This document shows, piece after piece, positions 2,456-10,800 of a DNA stretch of 64,000 nucleotides; the first letter of the stretch is position 1, and every line of letters begins with the position of its first letter. The notes beneath the pieces are model-generated. The model was not told the origin of the DNA and made no database searches. It worked only from the letters and a program-made list of their open reading frames with translations. The position numbers and the translations under genes were made by a program. This DNA comes from an uncultured Bacilli bacterium (GTDB lineage Bacteria; Bacillota_I; Bacilli_A; RF39; UBA660): the NCBI GenBank assembly GCA_934148875.1, contig CAKPDJ010000002.1, positions 1,297 through 65,296 of the forward strand. The letters run 5' to 3'.

Positions 2456-3178
2456 GTGAAAAAATACTGGGAATTTAAGAATATAGCAGAAACAAGTGCT
2501 GAATTATTCATATATGGTGATATATCTAGTTATGAATATGAAGGAAGTACATCTGCAAACCTTTTTAAAAAGGAGTTAGACTCTATTAACCCTGAAGCAG
2601 ACATTAATATTTTTATTAATAGTCCTGGGGGAGAAGTATTTGAAGGTATTGCAATAGGCAATATGATAAAACGTAGAAAAGGGAAAACTACTTGTACAGT
2701 AGATGCTTTAGCTGCAAGTATAGCAACTGTTATAGCTTCAAGTTGCGATAAAGTTTATATGTATAAGAACAGTATGTTTATGATCCATAATGCTTCATCT
2801 ATCGTTTGGGGAAATGCCAATGAAATGAGAAAAATGGCAGATGATTTAGATAGAATTACTGAATCAATTAAAGAAACTTACCTTGAAAAGTGTAAGAAAA
2901 AGACCACAAAAGCTGAGTTTACAAGGCTTATGGATAATGAAACATGGTTATCTGCTGATGAGACTAAAGAATTAGGTCTATGTGATAAGGTTTTAGCAGA
3001 AAACAAAGCAGTTGCAAGTATAAATAGTGAATTATTTAAAAATTATAAAAATGTTCCTGAAGGCTTAACAAAGCCTTTTTTTGATGCCCAAAAACCAGTA
3101 ATGAGTGAGGAAACAAAAGCATTATTGGAGGAAGTAAAAGCAATGAAGGGCTATGAAAATTTTGATAAATTATTTTAA
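2456..3178 (+). CDS. Prohead (ClpP/S14-like) maturation protease
   Basis: GTG start behind SD GAAAGGGGGTGAG. ClpP-like motifs INSPGGEVFEG and SMFMIHNAS. Lies between portal and capsid. Confidence 0.85.
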   Translation: MKKYWEFKNIAETSAELFIYGDISSYEYEGSTSANLFKKELDSINPEADINIFINSPGGEVFEGIAIGNMIKRRKGKTTCTVDALAASIATVIASSCDKVYMYKNSMFMIHNASSIVWGNANEMRKMADDLDRITESIKETYLEKCKKKTTKAEFTRLMDNETWLSADETKELGLCDKVLAENKAVASINSELFKNYKNVPEGLTKPFFDAQKPVMSEETKALLEEVKAMKGYENFDKLF

Positions 3179-3194
3179 AAGGAGGCCGAAAAAT

Positions 3195-4343
3195 ATGGCA
3201 AAAAACAGATTTAAAATTCAACAACAATTAGAAGGAACTAGAGCTTCTCTTAAAGAAGCAGTAAATAAAGTAGATGCAGCTTATGCTGATGTAACATCAA
3301 CTTTAGAACAAAGAGCTGCATTAGAAGAAATAGTAAAAGATCTTAAAAATAGAGTAGAAAAATATGAAAATGATTTAAAAGAATTAGATGAAGAAGCTGC
3401 AGAAAACTTTAAGAGAGAAAATTCTATTCACAATTTAAGAAAATCAGGAGATGAAAAAATAGAAGCAAAAGCTGAATTAATCAGAGCTACTATGAAAAAA
3501 GAAAAAGTAAGTCAAAGAGTTCTTAATGCTTTAGGAGAAGGATCAGGTGCAGGAAATGGTGAAAACTTATTACCAACAACTTTAATGACAGAATTAGTTA
3601 CTGAACCATTTGCAGTTAACCCATTAAGAGGAGTTTCAACAATGACTAATATCACAAACCTTGAAATTCCTAAATTAGCTTTCACATTAGATGATGATGA
3701 ATTCTTAACTTCTAATAGTGCAACTGCAAAAGAAATGGCTATGTCAGCATCTAAAATTAAATTTGAAAGAAAAGACTTTAGAGTATTTGCAGACATCACA
3801 GATGCAGTTTTAAGAGGAAGCAATGTTAATTTAGTAGGATATGTAGAAAATGCTTTAAGAAGTGGTATGGCAAAGAAAGAAAAGAAACTTGCTTTTGCTG
3901 TTGGAACATCAAATCCAGAAACTTCATTCTATAACAAGACTGGTTCTAACTATGACATCACTGCTATTACTAAAGAAAGTAAATACTTAGCAATAAAAGC
4001 AGCACTTGCAGATTTAGAAGATGATTATGCTGATAAAGCAAAAATTGTTATGAGAAGAGCAGATTATTATGACATAATCGAAGCTTTAGCAAACGGAAAT
4101 GCTTCTTTATACCAAGCACAACCAGAATCAGTATTAGGTGCTCCAGTTATCTTCTGTGACTTAGCAACTATTCCAGTAGTTGGTGACTTTTCTTACTCTC
4201 ACTTCAACTATGATTTAGATGCTACTTATGAATCAGATAAAAACATCAAAACAGGAATCACTTCTTTCGTATTAACAGGATACTTAGATCACAAGATTAA
4301 AATGAAATCTGCATTCAGATTAGCTTTAGTACAGGGGGAGTAA
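3195..4343 (+). CDS. Major capsid protein (HK97-like, with N-terminal coiled-coil delta/scaffold region)
   Basis: The internal ATG at 3195 has SD AAAGGAGG. The N-terminal region is coiled-coil (EQRAALEEIVKDLKNRVEKYENDLKELDEE), followed by a ~280-aa capsid body. Follows the protease. Confidence 0.85.
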   Translation: MAKNRFKIQQQLEGTRASLKEAVNKVDAAYADVTSTLEQRAALEEIVKDLKNRVEKYENDLKELDEEAAENFKRENSIHNLRKSGDEKIEAKAELIRATMKKEKVSQRVLNALGEGSGAGNGENLLPTTLMTELVTEPFAVNPLRGVSTMTNITNLEIPKLAFTLDDDEFLTSNSATAKEMAMSASKIKFERKDFRVFADITDAVLRGSNVNLVGYVENALRSGMAKKEKKLAFAVGTSNPETSFYNKTGSNYDITAITKESKYLAIKAALADLEDDYADKAKIVMRRADYYDIIEALANGNASLYQAQPESVLGAPVIFCDLATIPVVGDFSYSHFNYDLDATYESDKNIKTGITSFVLTGYLDHKIKMKSAFRLALVQGE

Positions 4344-5534: not shown

Positions 5535-5856
5535 ATTAAAAAAAGATTTAGAAGAAATAACCAGCATTCCTATATATGCATTTATAAAGCCAGAGGAAGA
5601 AATAAAAGATACTTATATAGAATATAGGATTATAAGTGATATAGATGCAGATTTTGCTGGTAATAAAAATTTAACTGAAATATATACAATTCAAATTGAT
5701 ATATTTAGTTATTATGACTATATAGAATTAGCAAAAACAATTAAAAATACTCTCAAAGCTAAAGGATATGTTTATATTCAAGGGGATGGGGATCTTTATG
5801 AACCAGATACTAAACTATACCATAAAGCAATGAGATTTAAATATAAAAAATTTTAG
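5524..5856 (+). CDS. Tail completion/terminator-like protein
   Basis: The track ORF is 5485..5856. The ATG at 5524 overlaps the upstream stop. It is the last gene before the major tail protein. Confidence 0.4.
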   Translation: MLSKLKKDLEEITSIPIYAFIKPEEEIKDTYIEYRIISDIDADFAGNKNLTEIYTIQIDIFSYYDYIELAKTIKNTLKAKGYVYIQGDGDLYEPDTKLYHKAMRFKYKKF

Positions 5857-5877
5857 AGCGTTAATCGCTCTTTTTTT
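5855..5877 (+). terminator. Rho-independent terminator-like hairpin
   Basis: AGAGCG-TTAAT-CGCTCT followed by T7. Confidence 0.7.
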
Positions 5878-5891
5878 AAGGAGGAATTTAA

Positions 5892-6341
5892 ATGGCAGTT
5901 GTAGCAAAACTAGAAAATGGTTTAAGAAAACTAAAAATGGCCCAATTAAGTGATGATGGTTCATATGGTGATATTTTCACTGTTGCAGACATGACACAAA
6001 TTACAGCAGAAACTAGTGAGGGTGAAACAAAATTAGCAGCTGGTAATGCTGTTATTTATTCAAAAAAGAGCAAAGGATCTACGACAGGTACTGTTGGATT
6101 TTACTCAACTGATGAAGATACAGAAGCTAAAATATTTGGTTATAAGAAAAATGAAGCAGGAAACATTTTATATGGAATGACTGATAACAAACCATTTGTT
6201 GCAATTATAGCAGAATTTACAGCAGTTAATCCTGCAACTGGTAATGAAGAAAATGGATATTTAATATTCCCTAAATGTGCTTTAGGAGAAATTTCTCAGG
6301 ACATTAGCACTAAGGATGCAGACGGTAGACTAGTTGCCGCT
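5892..6341 (+). CDS. Major tail protein, exon 1
   Basis: SD TAAGGAGG. 150 aa of a phi13/TP901-like tail tube N-terminal part (MAVVAKLENGLRKLKMAQLSDDGSYGD...). The ORF stops at 6342-6344 although the C-terminal part of the protein lies downstream. Confidence 0.75.
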
Positions 6342-6622
6342 TAAATCAGAAATGATTTAATGAAAATCGGTGAAAAAACTGGAAGGCTAAGTAAATTATT
6401 GAAATAAATTCTTTGGTATGTTTTAATGTAATAATTTATATGCTAATCAGAGGTGAAGGCTAGGTTTAAAAACTTAGTCAGCCGCAACGCATACAGATTG
6501 AACCTAGAAATAGAATATAATATCTGCAAGAGGCACCGATATCTTAGCAAGTAAAGTTGAAGATAAAAAGATATGCTGAACTTATAGAAAACTATAAGAA
6601 CTATGGGATAAAAAGCCTATAG
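6342..6622 (+). ncRNA. Group-I-like intron without an ORF, interrupting the major tail protein gene (boundaries +/-1 nt)
   Basis: There is no ORF in 6345-6622. It follows a U and ends in G. Helices: 6385-6392/6472-6479 interleaved with 6460-6466/6501-6507 (P3/P7-type pseudoknot), 6392-6400/6430-6438, a GAAA-loop hairpin at 6341-6360, and hairpins at 6581-6598 and 6601-6622. Confidence 0.55.
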
Positions 6623-6775
6623 GATAACAAATTGAACGAAACTTTCAATGCTAAATCATTAGCATTTACTGCAATGGCTTTAGACAATGCAAATAAAACT
6701 TATAAATTAAAAGGCTTTGGAGAAACACCAGCAACATTAACTGCTGAAATGTTTGTACCAAAAGCATCAGTTTAA
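6623..6775 (+). CDS. Major tail protein, exon 2 (C-terminal 50 aa)
   Basis: A start-less open frame DNKLNETFNAKSLAFTAMALDNANKTYKLKGFGETPATLTAEMFVPKASV*. It is in phase with exon 1 when 6342-6622 is removed. Confidence 0.65.
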   Translation, partial: DNKLNETFNAKSLAFTAMALDNANKTYKLKGFGETPATLTAEMFVPKASV

Positions 6776-7816: not shown

Positions 7817-10800
7817 ATGAGTGATTCTCAAATTAAAATTGAATATTTATTAAATTCATCTGAGTTTAATAAAAATATGGCCAGCATGAAGAAAAATATG
7901 CAGTTATGCAATGAAGAAGTAAAAAATTCAGCTAAAGAAATGAATACATATGGTTCCAATATTCAAACTTTGACTTCAAGGCAAAAAGCTATTCAACAAG
8001 CTATGGAACAAAGTAAAAAAATAATGGCTGAATACAATTCTAATTTAGAAAAAAATAAAAAAGCTTTAGAAGGGAATAAGCAATCTTTAGAAGATTTATC
8101 TAAAGCTAAGAAGCAAGCTAATAATGAATATAAAAATGCTGTAAAGATGTATGGTGAAGAATCAGAAGAAGCTTTAAAATTAAAAGAAGCTTTAGATGAA
8201 GTATCAGATGAATATGCAAATATGAAATCTAGAGTAAAAGGTAATGAAGATACTATTGTAAGTAATACAGCTCAATTAGAAAAACAAAGAGGTGTTTTAA
8301 TTGATTTAGAAGGACAGTTAAAAGCTACAAATAAAGCCTTAGAAGAACAATCTAATAAATTCATATTAGCTAGTAAAAGATTTAGTGAATGGGGGAAAAA
8401 CCTAGAAAAAATAGGTGGAAGTCTTAAAAATTTAGGAGAAGATGTACAAAAAGCTGGTGCGATAATTGTAACTGCAAGTGCAGGCTTAGCAACTTTGGCT
8501 ATGAGTGCAGAATCAGGTTTTGCAAAAGTAAACACTTTAGCAAAAGATTCTGGAGAAAGTTTAAAAAACTTTAAAAAAGATGTTTATGATTTATCAGATA
8601 ATACAGGACAATCAGTTGAAGATTTAACAGATGCTTTATACAATGCTGTAAGTGCTGGAGTAGATTATTCTCAATCAGTTGAATTTATGGATCAAGTTAA
8701 TAAAGTTGCTACTGGTGGATTTGGTGAAATAGCAGATGCATCTAGTGCATTAACTAGTATAATGAATATTTATGGTAAAACAGTAAAAGACACAGGAGAA
8801 ATATCTGATAAGCTGTTTGTTACACAAGAAAAAGGTGTATTAACAGTAGGAGAATTAAGTTCAGTGTTAGGTGAATCTGCTTCTAGTGCTAAAGCTTATA
8901 ATGTAGATTTAGATAACTTACTTAGTGGATATGTATCACTTACTAAAGCAGGTATTAATGTAAATCAATCAAATACCAAACTTAGAGCTATGTTCGAAGA
9001 ATTAGGTGATACTGGTTCAAATGTAGGTAAAATCCTTCAAGAAAAAACAGGTAAATCATTTACTCAATTAATGGAAGATGGTAATTCTTTAGCAGATGTA
9101 CTAAGTATTATAACTGATAGCGTTAATGGATCAAAAGATGATTTTAATGCTTTGTGGAGTAGTAGTGAAGCTGCAGGTGCTGGATTTGTAATTGCTAGTG
9201 AAGGTGGAAAAGTATTTAAAGATGCACTAAAAGGCATGGGAGAAAGTGCTGGCAAATGTAATGGTGCTTTTGAAGAGGTTGCAAATACTAGTGAATTTAA
9301 ATTTAAGAAAAGTATAAATGAAGTTAAAAATAGTGCTTCTAAATTAGGAGAATCTTTATTACCGGTTTTAGATGAAGTTTCTAAAGGTATTAGTAATGTT
9401 GCTAAATATATTTCCAAATTAAATCCTGAGACAGTTGTTGCAGTTGCAAAATTTGGAGCACTTGCTTTAGTGTTCGGAACTGCCATGAAAGCTACTGGTT
9501 CACTTGTAGAAGGTTTAGGAAAAGGTGCACAAGCATTATCAGGATTATTTAAAATTGCTGCAGATACTAAGTCATTTGGAAGTTTTTCAAAAGCTTTAGC
9601 TGAAAGTGATACTGCTATTGGTGGTTTAGTTAAATCTGCTGGTGGATTATCTGAAGTGTTTGGTGGATTTACTTTAACAGGTGGATTAATAGGGGGAGCA
9701 ATAGCTGGTGTAGCCGCGTTAGGAGTAGCTTTTTATAATAATCAAAAAGAAATAGAAGAATCAGAAGCTAAGCTAGCTGAAATGGCTGATTGTTATGATG
9801 ATTTTACAGGAAGAATACGAACTAACGAAAATATATGGACAGAGATATTTGGTAAAGAATACAATATAAAATTTGGAGATGACTATAAACAAGCATTAGC
9901 TAATACAGAAGCAGATGTTGAAGCATGGGTAGAAAACCTAAGAAGTATGCAGGACGATATAAATGCCCTTTTAAATGATACAGAGAAGTCTGACGAAACT
10001 AAACAAAAAGAATTAGAACAGATGGTTCAAATAGTTCCTGAAAGCAACAATAAAGAAGAACATAAGCTACAATTCAAGAGCGGTTTAGAAGAAGCGGGGA
10101 TAACAGGGGAATCACAAGAAAAATATTTGCAACTTTGGTCTGAAGCATATGATAATGCACAACAAGTAGTAGATGGCGGCGAAAAGAAAATTGCAGAAAT
10201 AATTAGAAATAACCTAGGCGAAGATGGTAATATTACCGAAGAAGGTATGAAACAAATAGAGGAAGTAAGAAAAGATGTCCAAGATGAAATGGCACAAGTT
10301 CAATCTAATGATTTTGATACTATGTTGGCTATGACAGAAAGCCATATTGCACAAGAAGAAGCAATATATAAAGGTGCAGAAAAAGGCTCAGTTGAAGCAA
10401 TTAGAAATAAATATAAAACTATGAATGACGAAAGAATAAAAGAATTAGAAAATGAAAAAAATTTTATAGATGAACGTGCAGGATTAAGCGAACAAGAGAA
10501 ACAAGCACTTAAAGATAATATCAATAATCAAATAAATAATATTAATGCTATAGAACAAGCACAGATGGCAAGTCTTAATCGTAGGGCTATGTATGATCAA
10601 GAATATGCAAAACAAAATGGGTTAGCTGTTCAGCAAATTAATGATAATATGTGGACGGTTATAGATACTAATACTGGAATTGAAACATCATTCTTTGACA
10701 CAGAAGCGGCCATGCAAGAATATGCTAATAATATGGGGCTACAAACTTCTTATGTTTCCGATGAATTTGGTAATATGCATATGGTTATTCAAGATGCAGG

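Follow-up and report, generated by a model that had tools for sequence, protein, structure and literature searches.

A probable group I intron without an open reading frame splits the major tail protein gene of an AT-rich phage

Results

The split major tail protein gene and its junction

The DNA analyzed here is a stretch of 64,000 nucleotides (nt), hereafter the window, from an uncultured Bacilli bacterium (GenBank assembly GCA_934148875.1, contig CAKPDJ010000002.1, positions 1,297 to 65,296 of the forward strand). It belongs to an AT-rich, Clostridium-type phage, has a G+C content of 27.5% and carries nearly all of its genes on the + strand, as are the tube gene and the intron features described below. 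Our subject is the gene for the major tail (tube) protein and the segment that interrupts it. The gene follows the head-completion genes and precedes two small open reading frames (ORFs) and a tape-measure-like ORF of 1271 amino acids (aa), the position expected of a siphovirus tube gene. An ORF at 5892-6344 encodes 150 aa and ends at an in-frame TAA (6342-6344); its product matches PHROG 88 (phrog_88, "major tail protein") with E = 1e-18. A second frame without a start codon opens at 6623 and reaches its stop at 6773-6775. An earlier note, made from the sequence without database searches, had described both frames, which are confirmed here, and had proposed that they are parts of one major tail protein gene into which an ORF-less, group I-like intron is inserted. 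This proposal is supported by five independent lines of evidence: colinearity, covariation, homologues that include the Twort introns and members passing the Rfam threshold, endonuclease-bearing copies at the same site, and intron-less alleles. With a probability of roughly 0.93, we conclude that 6327-6634, which lies in phase 0 between codons 145 (GGU) and 146 (AAC), is a group I intron and is removed by splicing.

The junction was placed by comparison with uninterrupted homologues. When the 200-aa protein obtained by joining the frames as in the earlier note was used as a query, 100 homologues were returned, and 40 of the top 42 were 188-191 aa long with 97-100% query coverage. Uninterrupted homologues have 191 aa and are up to 96% identical to the window protein, and in every full-length one the aligned junction context reads ...STKDADG|NETFNAKSL.... 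The intron limits first proposed, 6342-6622, keep the frame, yet they leave nine residues (RLVAADNKL, that is RLVAA before the stop followed by DNKL) that appear as an insertion absent from all 17 aligned homologues. Some database entries of 147-150 aa terminate in RLVAA or RQVAA; they originate from other interrupted copies. The homologue alignment therefore ends exon 1 with GGU at 6324-6326 and begins exon 2 with AAC at 6635. The sites suggested earlier, which the note itself had not taken as final, were thus off by 15 nt on the 5′ side and 12 nt on the 3′ side, and the product of about 200 aa is really one of 191 aa.

Exon 1 (5892-6326) comprises codons 1-145, the last being GGU (Gly145), as defined by the ORF, the phrog_88 match and the homologue alignment. 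Exon 2 (6635-6775) comprises codons 146-191 (NETFNAKSL...KASV) and the stop codon, as defined by the homologue alignment and the intron-less alleles. The spliced gene has 576 nt, and the 191-aa protein that results from excising 6327-6634 gives a gap-free alignment with the 191-aa homologues. Two metagenomic alleles that lack the intron (L145 and L146) are 94.3% identical in DNA to the spliced gene. Corrected splicing raises the phrog_88 score from 68 to 81.9 bits and that of the Pfam family Phage_TTP_1 from 17-19 bits, below the cut-off of 22, to 23.6 bits; both matches cross the junction. Alignment of the conceptually spliced protein, a check named in the earlier note, thus confirmed the split tube gene but moved the junction to 6326|6635. 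The nearest relatives of the tube protein in genomes are found in Clostridium sp. CAG:221 and C. celatum; both of these tube genes are intron-less, and the scan of the genome collection found only such genes. Among GenBank phages, a close relative of the window phage is absent (the best matches cover 14% of the query at 67-68% identity), and a tblastn search of these phages with the 200-aa join gave zero matches.

The segment so delimited is 308 nt long and ends in G6634, the omega-G. It contains no ORF longer than 35 aa, hence no homing-endonuclease ORF; the earlier note, too, had seen no ORF in the insert. Its limits are given by the homologue junction and the covariation described below, and R1, a covariance model of the 3′ domain of its family (147 positions, with the Twort sequences kept out of the seed), finds it once, at 133.5 bits over 6484-6637. 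The earlier note had found no convincing P1 helix with the canonical U-G pair. P1 became recognizable once the 5′ boundary was corrected to 6326. Read from the sequence, it is a hairpin at 6323-6339 in which exon CGGU and intron AG (6323-6328) pair with UUGCCG (6334-6339) around the loop ACUAG, so that the final base of the 5′ exon, U6326, wobble-pairs with G6336 at the cleavage site. The internal guide sequence, 5′-GUUGCCG-3′ (6333-6339), pairs through GCCG with CGGU of exon 1 in P1 and through GUU (6333-6335) with AAC of exon 2 (6635-6637) in P10; its bases (7/7) are all complementary to CGGUAAC, the ligated junction, and it is identical in two orthologues at the same site (L005 and L006). 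The in-frame TAA at 6342-6344 (intron nt 16-18) falls within P2, and unspliced RNA would give the 150-aa product ending in ...RLVAA. An in-frame stop this early, in P1 or P2, is reported to be general among group I introns of bacteria and phages (Tourasse and Kolsto, 2008; PMC2504315).

Structure of the intron and its conservation

A group I structure (P2, P3, P4, P5, P6, P6a, P7, P7.1, P7.1a, P8, P9 and P9.1) was fitted to the window intron, and its pairs were counted on two MAFFT alignments, A3 with 31 full-length ORF-less family members and A4 with 83 sequences of the 3′ domain. In A3, 88.7% of the cells are paired, compared with 33-41% when the partners are slid, and 57 of the 67 pairs show compensatory changes on both sides. 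The covariation score of A3 is 0.659 against 0.19 in shuffles, and none of 500 shuffles scored as high. In A4, the figures are 97.2% of cells and 28 of 33 pairs; over the tested alignments, the slid-partner controls range from 30% to 43%. The dense structure remarked on earlier is also seen in folding stability, which beats shuffles on the + strand (z = -2.55) and does not on the - strand (z = +0.10).

P2 (6341-6360) has 8 bp closed by a GAAA tetraloop. All eight pairs are compensatory in the family, and P2 also shows compensatory changes against the same-site orthologue L005; 26 of 31 family L2 loops are GNRA. The 5′ strand of P3 (AUCGGUG, 6366-6372) pairs with CACCGAU at 6534-6540 and interleaves with P7 (6487, 6489-6493/6572-6577), which is the group I pseudoknot. 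In an alignment-free test of P3, helices of 5 bp or more (mostly 7) can form between a member's two own strands in 30 of 31 members, compared with 34% when the partners of other members are used. The P4 and P5 arm (6379-6450) consists of P4 (6379-6382/6447-6450), P5 (6385-6387/6442-6444) and P5a (6392-6400/6430-6438), with a 29-nt loop. The P4 and P5 columns are 96% paired with 6/7 pairs compensatory in A3; P5a, the 9-bp helix already seen in the earlier note, shows by eye one compensatory change against L005. Within 6452-6483, P6 (6452-6454/6481-6483) has 3/3 compensatory pairs, and the P6a hairpin (6458-6466/6471-6479) has 8/9 and is 87% paired (A3).

J6/7 and the 5′ strand of P7 form the R-like element GCAACGCAUA (6484-6493), with A6487, a bulged C6488 and GCAUA at 6489-6493; J8/7 (AAAAGA) and the 3′ strand of P7 (UAUGCU) occupy 6566-6577, within the S-like element AAAAGAUAUGCUG (6566-6578). 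In the 83 sequences of A4, pairing of P7 is complete (100%), C6488 is unpaired, the pair G6489:C6576 is invariant (83/83) and the closing pair 6487:6577 covaries between A:U (45) and G:C (38). By analogy with the matching position in Twort intron 2, G6489:C6576 is presumed to be the guanosine-binding pair. Between P7 and the 3′ strand of P3 lies an arm at 6494-6526, made of P7.1 (6494-6498/6522-6526; 5/5 pairs compensatory, 99.8% paired in A4) and the inner hairpin P7.1a (6504-6506/6511-6513) with a GAAA loop. The P8 hairpin (6540-6565; 5/5 pairs compensatory, 93% paired) and the P9 hairpin (6581-6598; 7 bp, loop AAAA, 6/7 pairs compensatory) are likewise drawn from A4. P9.1 (6601-6607/6616-6622) has 6/7 compensatory pairs and the loop AUAAAAAG; together with the tail GAUAACAAAUUG, which runs to the omega-G, it fills 6601-6634. 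In columns at least 85% conserved in the family, the window deviates solely by the compensated pairs 6494:6526, 6540:6565 and 6371 with 6535.

Four hairpins named in the earlier note are therefore real and family-conserved, namely P2, P8 (at about 6540-6565), P9 and P9.1 (6601-6622). Its pseudoknot was placed wrongly: the helices 6385-6392/6472-6479 and 6460-6466/6501-6507, read there as P3 and P7, are replaced according to the covariation by the local hairpins P6a and P7.1, and the segments taken for the R and S core elements belong to P6a and the P7.1 arm.

An intron family in Firmicutes phages and its detection

A blastn search with the intron region matched 48-86 phage records. The matches leave the 5′ half of the insert uncovered and stop at 6634-6637, and in annotated records the matching segment is the 3′ end of a gene-splitting insert. 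Family introns split the tape-measure gene of Staphylococcus phage 6ec, with an adjoining HNH gene, the terminase gene of IMEP5, the tape-measure gene of phiCD211 (phiCD211/phiCDIF1296T), the terminase gene of Enterocloster phages and a RecD-like helicase gene of Bacillus phage PJN02, where a "mobile intron protein" and an endonuclease adjoin. Staphylococcus phages similar to 6ec carry family introns in tape-measure and terminase genes. Family members, which comprise named phages and more than 100 IMG/VR contigs, have 3′ domains 69-87% identical and common helices with covariation. They differ from the window intron in the genes they split and in their guide sequences, and many carry HNH or other endonuclease ORFs. 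At least 120 IMG/VR stretches contain a match to GATAAAAAGC-N6-GATAACA, a motif covering the P9.1 loop and the tail. Most family introns lack annotation in their records.

R1 also matches introns 2 and 3 of Twort orf142 (39 bits, E ~1.6e-6 in a 92-kb search), with P7, P8, P9, P9.1 and the tail aligning as expected. The Rfam group I model, by which the earlier note had proposed to check the intron, behaves differently. At the gathering threshold, Rfam found nothing in the whole window, and Intron_gpI stayed below its cut-off at the intron, where the family-built R1 gives a strong match. Three family members pass the Intron_gpI threshold (L032, 51 bits; L089, 54.2 bits; L090, 61.4 bits), and it misses 20 of the 23 R1 matches in 20 loci. 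That phage introns can escape current models has been noted (PMC11878797).

Two further candidates in the window were rejected. The segment 36873-36954, which blastn suggested as another copy (E = 0.016), scores at most 4 bits with unfiltered R1 and lies in a region full of small ORFs. A weak R1 match at 8395-8475 (16.7 bits, E = 0.097) falls within the uninterrupted 1271-aa tape-measure ORF and was taken as noise, probably a chance match.

Elsewhere, some viral contigs carry more than one copy. L069 has two family copies (3422-3574 and 3795-3942), L027, L033 and L057 have two or three motif matches each, and L053 and L090 have two R1 matches each. Since several viral contigs hold 2-3 family copies within a few kb, multiple introns per phage are common. 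In the tape-measure gene of phiCD211 (L019), a family member (120 bits) occupies 1454-1633, and some 20 nt separate it from a second element at 1654-1919, which the record annotates as misc_RNA Intron_gpI; the stretch 1454-1919 looks like two adjacent introns split by a tiny exon. The Rfam scan of multiple loci reported neither of these two elements at E <= 1. In Enterocloster phage CB457P1 (L002 2440-2771 / 2675-2816), a second group I intron lies about 1 kb downstream of the family-type terminase intron. It scores 93.6 bits with Rfam against 25.5 bits with R1, and an annotated intron-associated endonuclease adjoins it.

Alleles with and without the intron

The insertion site is polymorphic, with intron-less alleles (L145 and L146) on one side and intron-bearing alleles on the other. 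In two of the latter, the 35-kb contig L005 and L006, the first ~100 nt of the intron, from P1 to the 5′ strand of P5a, are common with the window, with compensatory changes in P2, and then diverge into an ORF. In L005, this ORF encodes a 248-aa HNH protein and lies in the P5a loop; R1 gives the 3′ domain 106 bits, and exon 2 begins with AAC. The intron at this insertion site carries a 348-aa HNH ORF in L149, and an HNH ORF in L213 as well. A gut metagenome sequence (L148) combines a 3′ domain at 150-288 (70.6 bits) with a 261-aa LAGLIDADG ORF at 304-1089 and exon 2 (NETFNAKSL...) at 1099-1242; its endonuclease gene may sit in a 3′-peripheral loop, or there may be two tandem elements.

Upstream of the HNH ORF of L005, at 3506-3534, is a promoter of the sigma-70 type (TTGAAA-17-TATAAT, 11/12 matches, extended -10), which suggests that the endonuclease gene is transcribed from inside the intron. 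The homologous position in the P5a loop of the window carries a putative promoter remnant at 6399-6427 (TTGAAA-17 nt-TTTAAT), which no longer passes the promoter scan. The simplest reading of this arrangement is that the window intron lost its endonuclease gene by deletion, and it would therefore no longer be able to home by itself. A degenerate pattern of P1 and the guide sequence was also searched in metagenomes; none of its 63 matches was homologous by blastn and they were set aside as chance.

The exon 2 protein equals that of the intron-less alleles save two residues near the C-terminus (KA vs. NP). Around the junction, DNA identity to L145 and L146 falls from ~95% to 75.6% in 45 nt. Approximately 11 differences from these alleles lie within ~45 nt of the insertion site (6297-6341 and 6635-6660), and all are synonymous. 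The flanks read GACGGT|AACGAA in the window vs. GATGGA|AATGAG in the intron-less alleles, and GACGGU|AACGA is common to the intron-bearing alleles, even the divergent L005. Such a synonymous cluster is the trace that would be expected from co-conversion, from selection for P1/P10 pairing, or from both.

A second intron site was observed in homologous tube genes near codon 46 (TSEG|ETKL). It occurs in L008 (1520-1681 / 2892-3450) and L010 (2001-2162 / 2887-3450), proteins P0049 and P0052, where R1 matches of 118 and 57 bits lie immediately upstream of exon 2 and the site used in the window is free of an intron. The tube-protein family therefore has at least two homing sites.

Immediately 5′ of the ribosome-binding site of the window tube gene is a terminator-like hairpin at 5855-5871 (AGAGCG-TTAAT-CGCTCT) with a run of T behind it, which could keep the transcription units of head and tail apart or reduce read-through.

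Discussion

It is very likely that the window intron still splices, because both exons are intact and the tube gene is essential for a tailed phage. Several observations weigh against the interpretation of 6327-6634 as a spliced group I intron. On 6250-6700, the Rfam model RF00028 (Intron_gpI) gives 10.1 bits with E = 6.2, far from its cut-off of 50 and in part mis-registered. Because of this low score, group I membership of the window copy rests on its architecture and homology. In A3, the P3 columns are 61% and the P6 columns 69% paired, values that are low because of register shifts in the alignment. The L9 loop of the window (6588-6591) is AAAA, whereas the other four-base L9 loops of the family are GNRA in 45 of 45 cases (GAAA 37, GUGA 6, GCGA 2), and this could weaken a tertiary tetraloop contact. 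The window copy is furthermore the sole ORF-less one seen at the tube-gene site, and an exact 25-mer across the deletion junction had 0 matches in the JGI metagenome collection.

The anatomy of the element suggests how expression of the gene would proceed. Once the late transcript is made, ribosomes translating exon 1 would halt at the TAA located 16-18 nt into the intron, inside P2, and the ribozyme core would therefore be free to fold. The P4-P6 and P3-P9 domains would assemble, joined through the P3/P7 pseudoknot, and a free guanosine would dock at G6489:C6576 of P7, beside the bulged C6488. This guanosine would attack after U6326, presented by P1 as the U6326·G6336 wobble. The omega-G at 6634 would then occupy the guanosine site while P10 (6333-6335 with 6635-6637) positions exon 2, and ligation of the exons would give ...GAC GGU AAC GAA... 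and the 191-aa tube protein. An earlier form of the intron would have contained, within the P5a loop, a gene for a homing endonuclease like those still present in its same-site relatives; this gene would later have been deleted.

Other explanations of the interrupted gene have to be considered. The tube gene could be dead, truncated at 150 aa, with 6623-6775 a leftover of a replaced allele and the insert a piece of decaying mobile DNA that always stays in the RNA. The Rfam score far under the threshold would fit this, and the loss of the endonuclease gene and the non-GNRA L9 are possible signs of decay. We nevertheless regard it as very improbable: exon 2 is intact, lies in the required phase and encodes a protein near-identical to that of the intron-less alleles, all invariant core columns of the family are kept with deviations restricted to compensated pairs, and the guide sequence still matches both exons at 7/7 positions. 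In addition, a tube protein is essential, and a second tube gene was not seen nearby. It is less probable still that the tube protein is made in two pieces, an N-terminal one of 150 aa and one of 47 aa whose translation starts at TTG 6632, and that these assemble without splicing. A 47-aa ORF with this start does exist at 6632-6775, preceded by AGGA 8 nt upstream. The AGGA and TTG, however, are the 3′ strand of P9.1 and the GAUAACAAAUUG tail, conserved in the 83 aligned members whatever gene is split; all intron-less homologues encode a single chain, and two pieces would leave the conserved ribozyme architecture unexplained.

A coding sequence that is broken and has its frame restored downstream could also reflect bypassing by the ribosome, of the kind known from T4 gene 60, or the presence of a group II intron, an intein or an insertion of the transposon type (miniature inverted-repeat transposable element or insertion sequence). 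This is the least credible of the explanations. The 308-nt gap is far above known bypass gaps of about 50 nt, and the take-off codon GGU and landing codon UUG do not match; stop codons in the reading frame argue against an intein; the Rfam scans gave no match to a group II model, for which the element is also too short; and neither a target-site duplication nor a terminal inverted repeat is present at 6326/6635. Covariation fits a group I fold and, together with the R1 matches, effectively refutes interruptions of these other kinds. A group I intron that is probably spliced out remains the reading we prefer.

The closest known systems are introns I2 and I3 of orf142 of Staphylococcus phage Twort, which are experimentally self-splicing group I introns of subgroup IA2. 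A crystal structure of the Twort I2 ribozyme is available. The orf142 record is annotated "contains group 1 introns", of which there are three, and the gene encodes the tail-tube protein (PMC11878797). Like the window intron, Twort I2 and I3 are ORF-less, at ~250-330 nt, and interrupt a tail-tube gene. They share with it the layout of J6/7 and P7 (A, bulged C, G:C pair) and the arrangement of J8/7, P9, P9.1 and a ...UAACAnAAUUG tail. Unlike the siphovirus tube protein of the window, which is of the Phage_TTP_1/phrog_88 type, that of Twort is a myovirus protein, and the insertion sites differ. Beyond the 3′ third, sequence similarity is low, and the P9 loop is of the GAAA type in Twort but AAAA in the window. 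Twort also has two hairpins, P7.1 and P7.2, between P7 and the 3′ strand of P3, where the window has one stacked P7.1/P7.1a arm.

A second comparison is offered by prophages of Bacillus weihenstephanensis KBAB4 and Bacillus cereus B4264, which share an intron in a tail-tube gene; related introns occur in tape-measure and terminase genes, and the prophage introns were classed as IA1 or IA2 (Tourasse and Kolsto, 2008; PMC2504315). As in the window, an IA-class intron is inserted in frame in a tail-tube gene of a phage or prophage, a stop codon occurs early (within the first 27 nt, in P1 or P2), and co-conversion tracts at the site accompany variants with and without an endonuclease gene. The host genus and the tube-protein family differ, and this likeness is drawn from the published descriptions.

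The extra arm between P7 and the 3′ strand of P3 suggests that the window intron is IA-like, of subgroup IA1 or IA2. Subgroup IA2, the type of the Twort and T4 td introns, is defined by extra P7.1 and P7.2 helices at this position. The window arm (6494-6526) forms a single stacked helix, in which the inner hairpin is optional, and because it is not the pair of hairpins found in Twort, we do not choose between IA1 and IA2.

It is important to consider what such an element means for the annotation of phage genomes. Gene callers give a tube protein of 150 aa and a naive join one of 200 aa, whereas the true product has 191 aa. The 10 bits that Rfam Intron_gpI gives to an intron that is clearly group I by covariation mark a blind spot in detection, and introns of this family split terminase, tape-measure, helicase and tube genes across many Firmicutes phages, where they are unannotated. 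A wider proposal, which we consider speculative and as a whole rather unlikely, is that the window intron represents a large clade of AT-rich IA phage introns, to which the 17-base motif with its 120 or more IMG/VR matches points, in phages of Clostridium, Clostridioides, Enterocloster, Staphylococcus, Bacillus and others. Rfam misses most of this clade (20 of the 23 matches in the test set), so that many essential genes split in Firmicutes phages would probably be annotated wrongly as two ORFs. In this proposal, the window copy may also splice partially or conditionally. The last point is raised because the endonuclease gene has been lost and L9 is uniquely non-GNRA; if true, partial or conditional splicing would restrict the amount of tube protein or set the time at which it is made.

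Phage structural genes, the tail-tube gene included, are already well documented as hosts of group I introns, and general knowledge of such introns is unchanged by this example. In close relatives, a single homing site displays the life cycle of the element, as an empty site, an HNH intron, a LAGLIDADG intron and an ORF-less intron. The main value of the finding lies in a corrected annotation and in a clear example of an intron family that the standard model misses.

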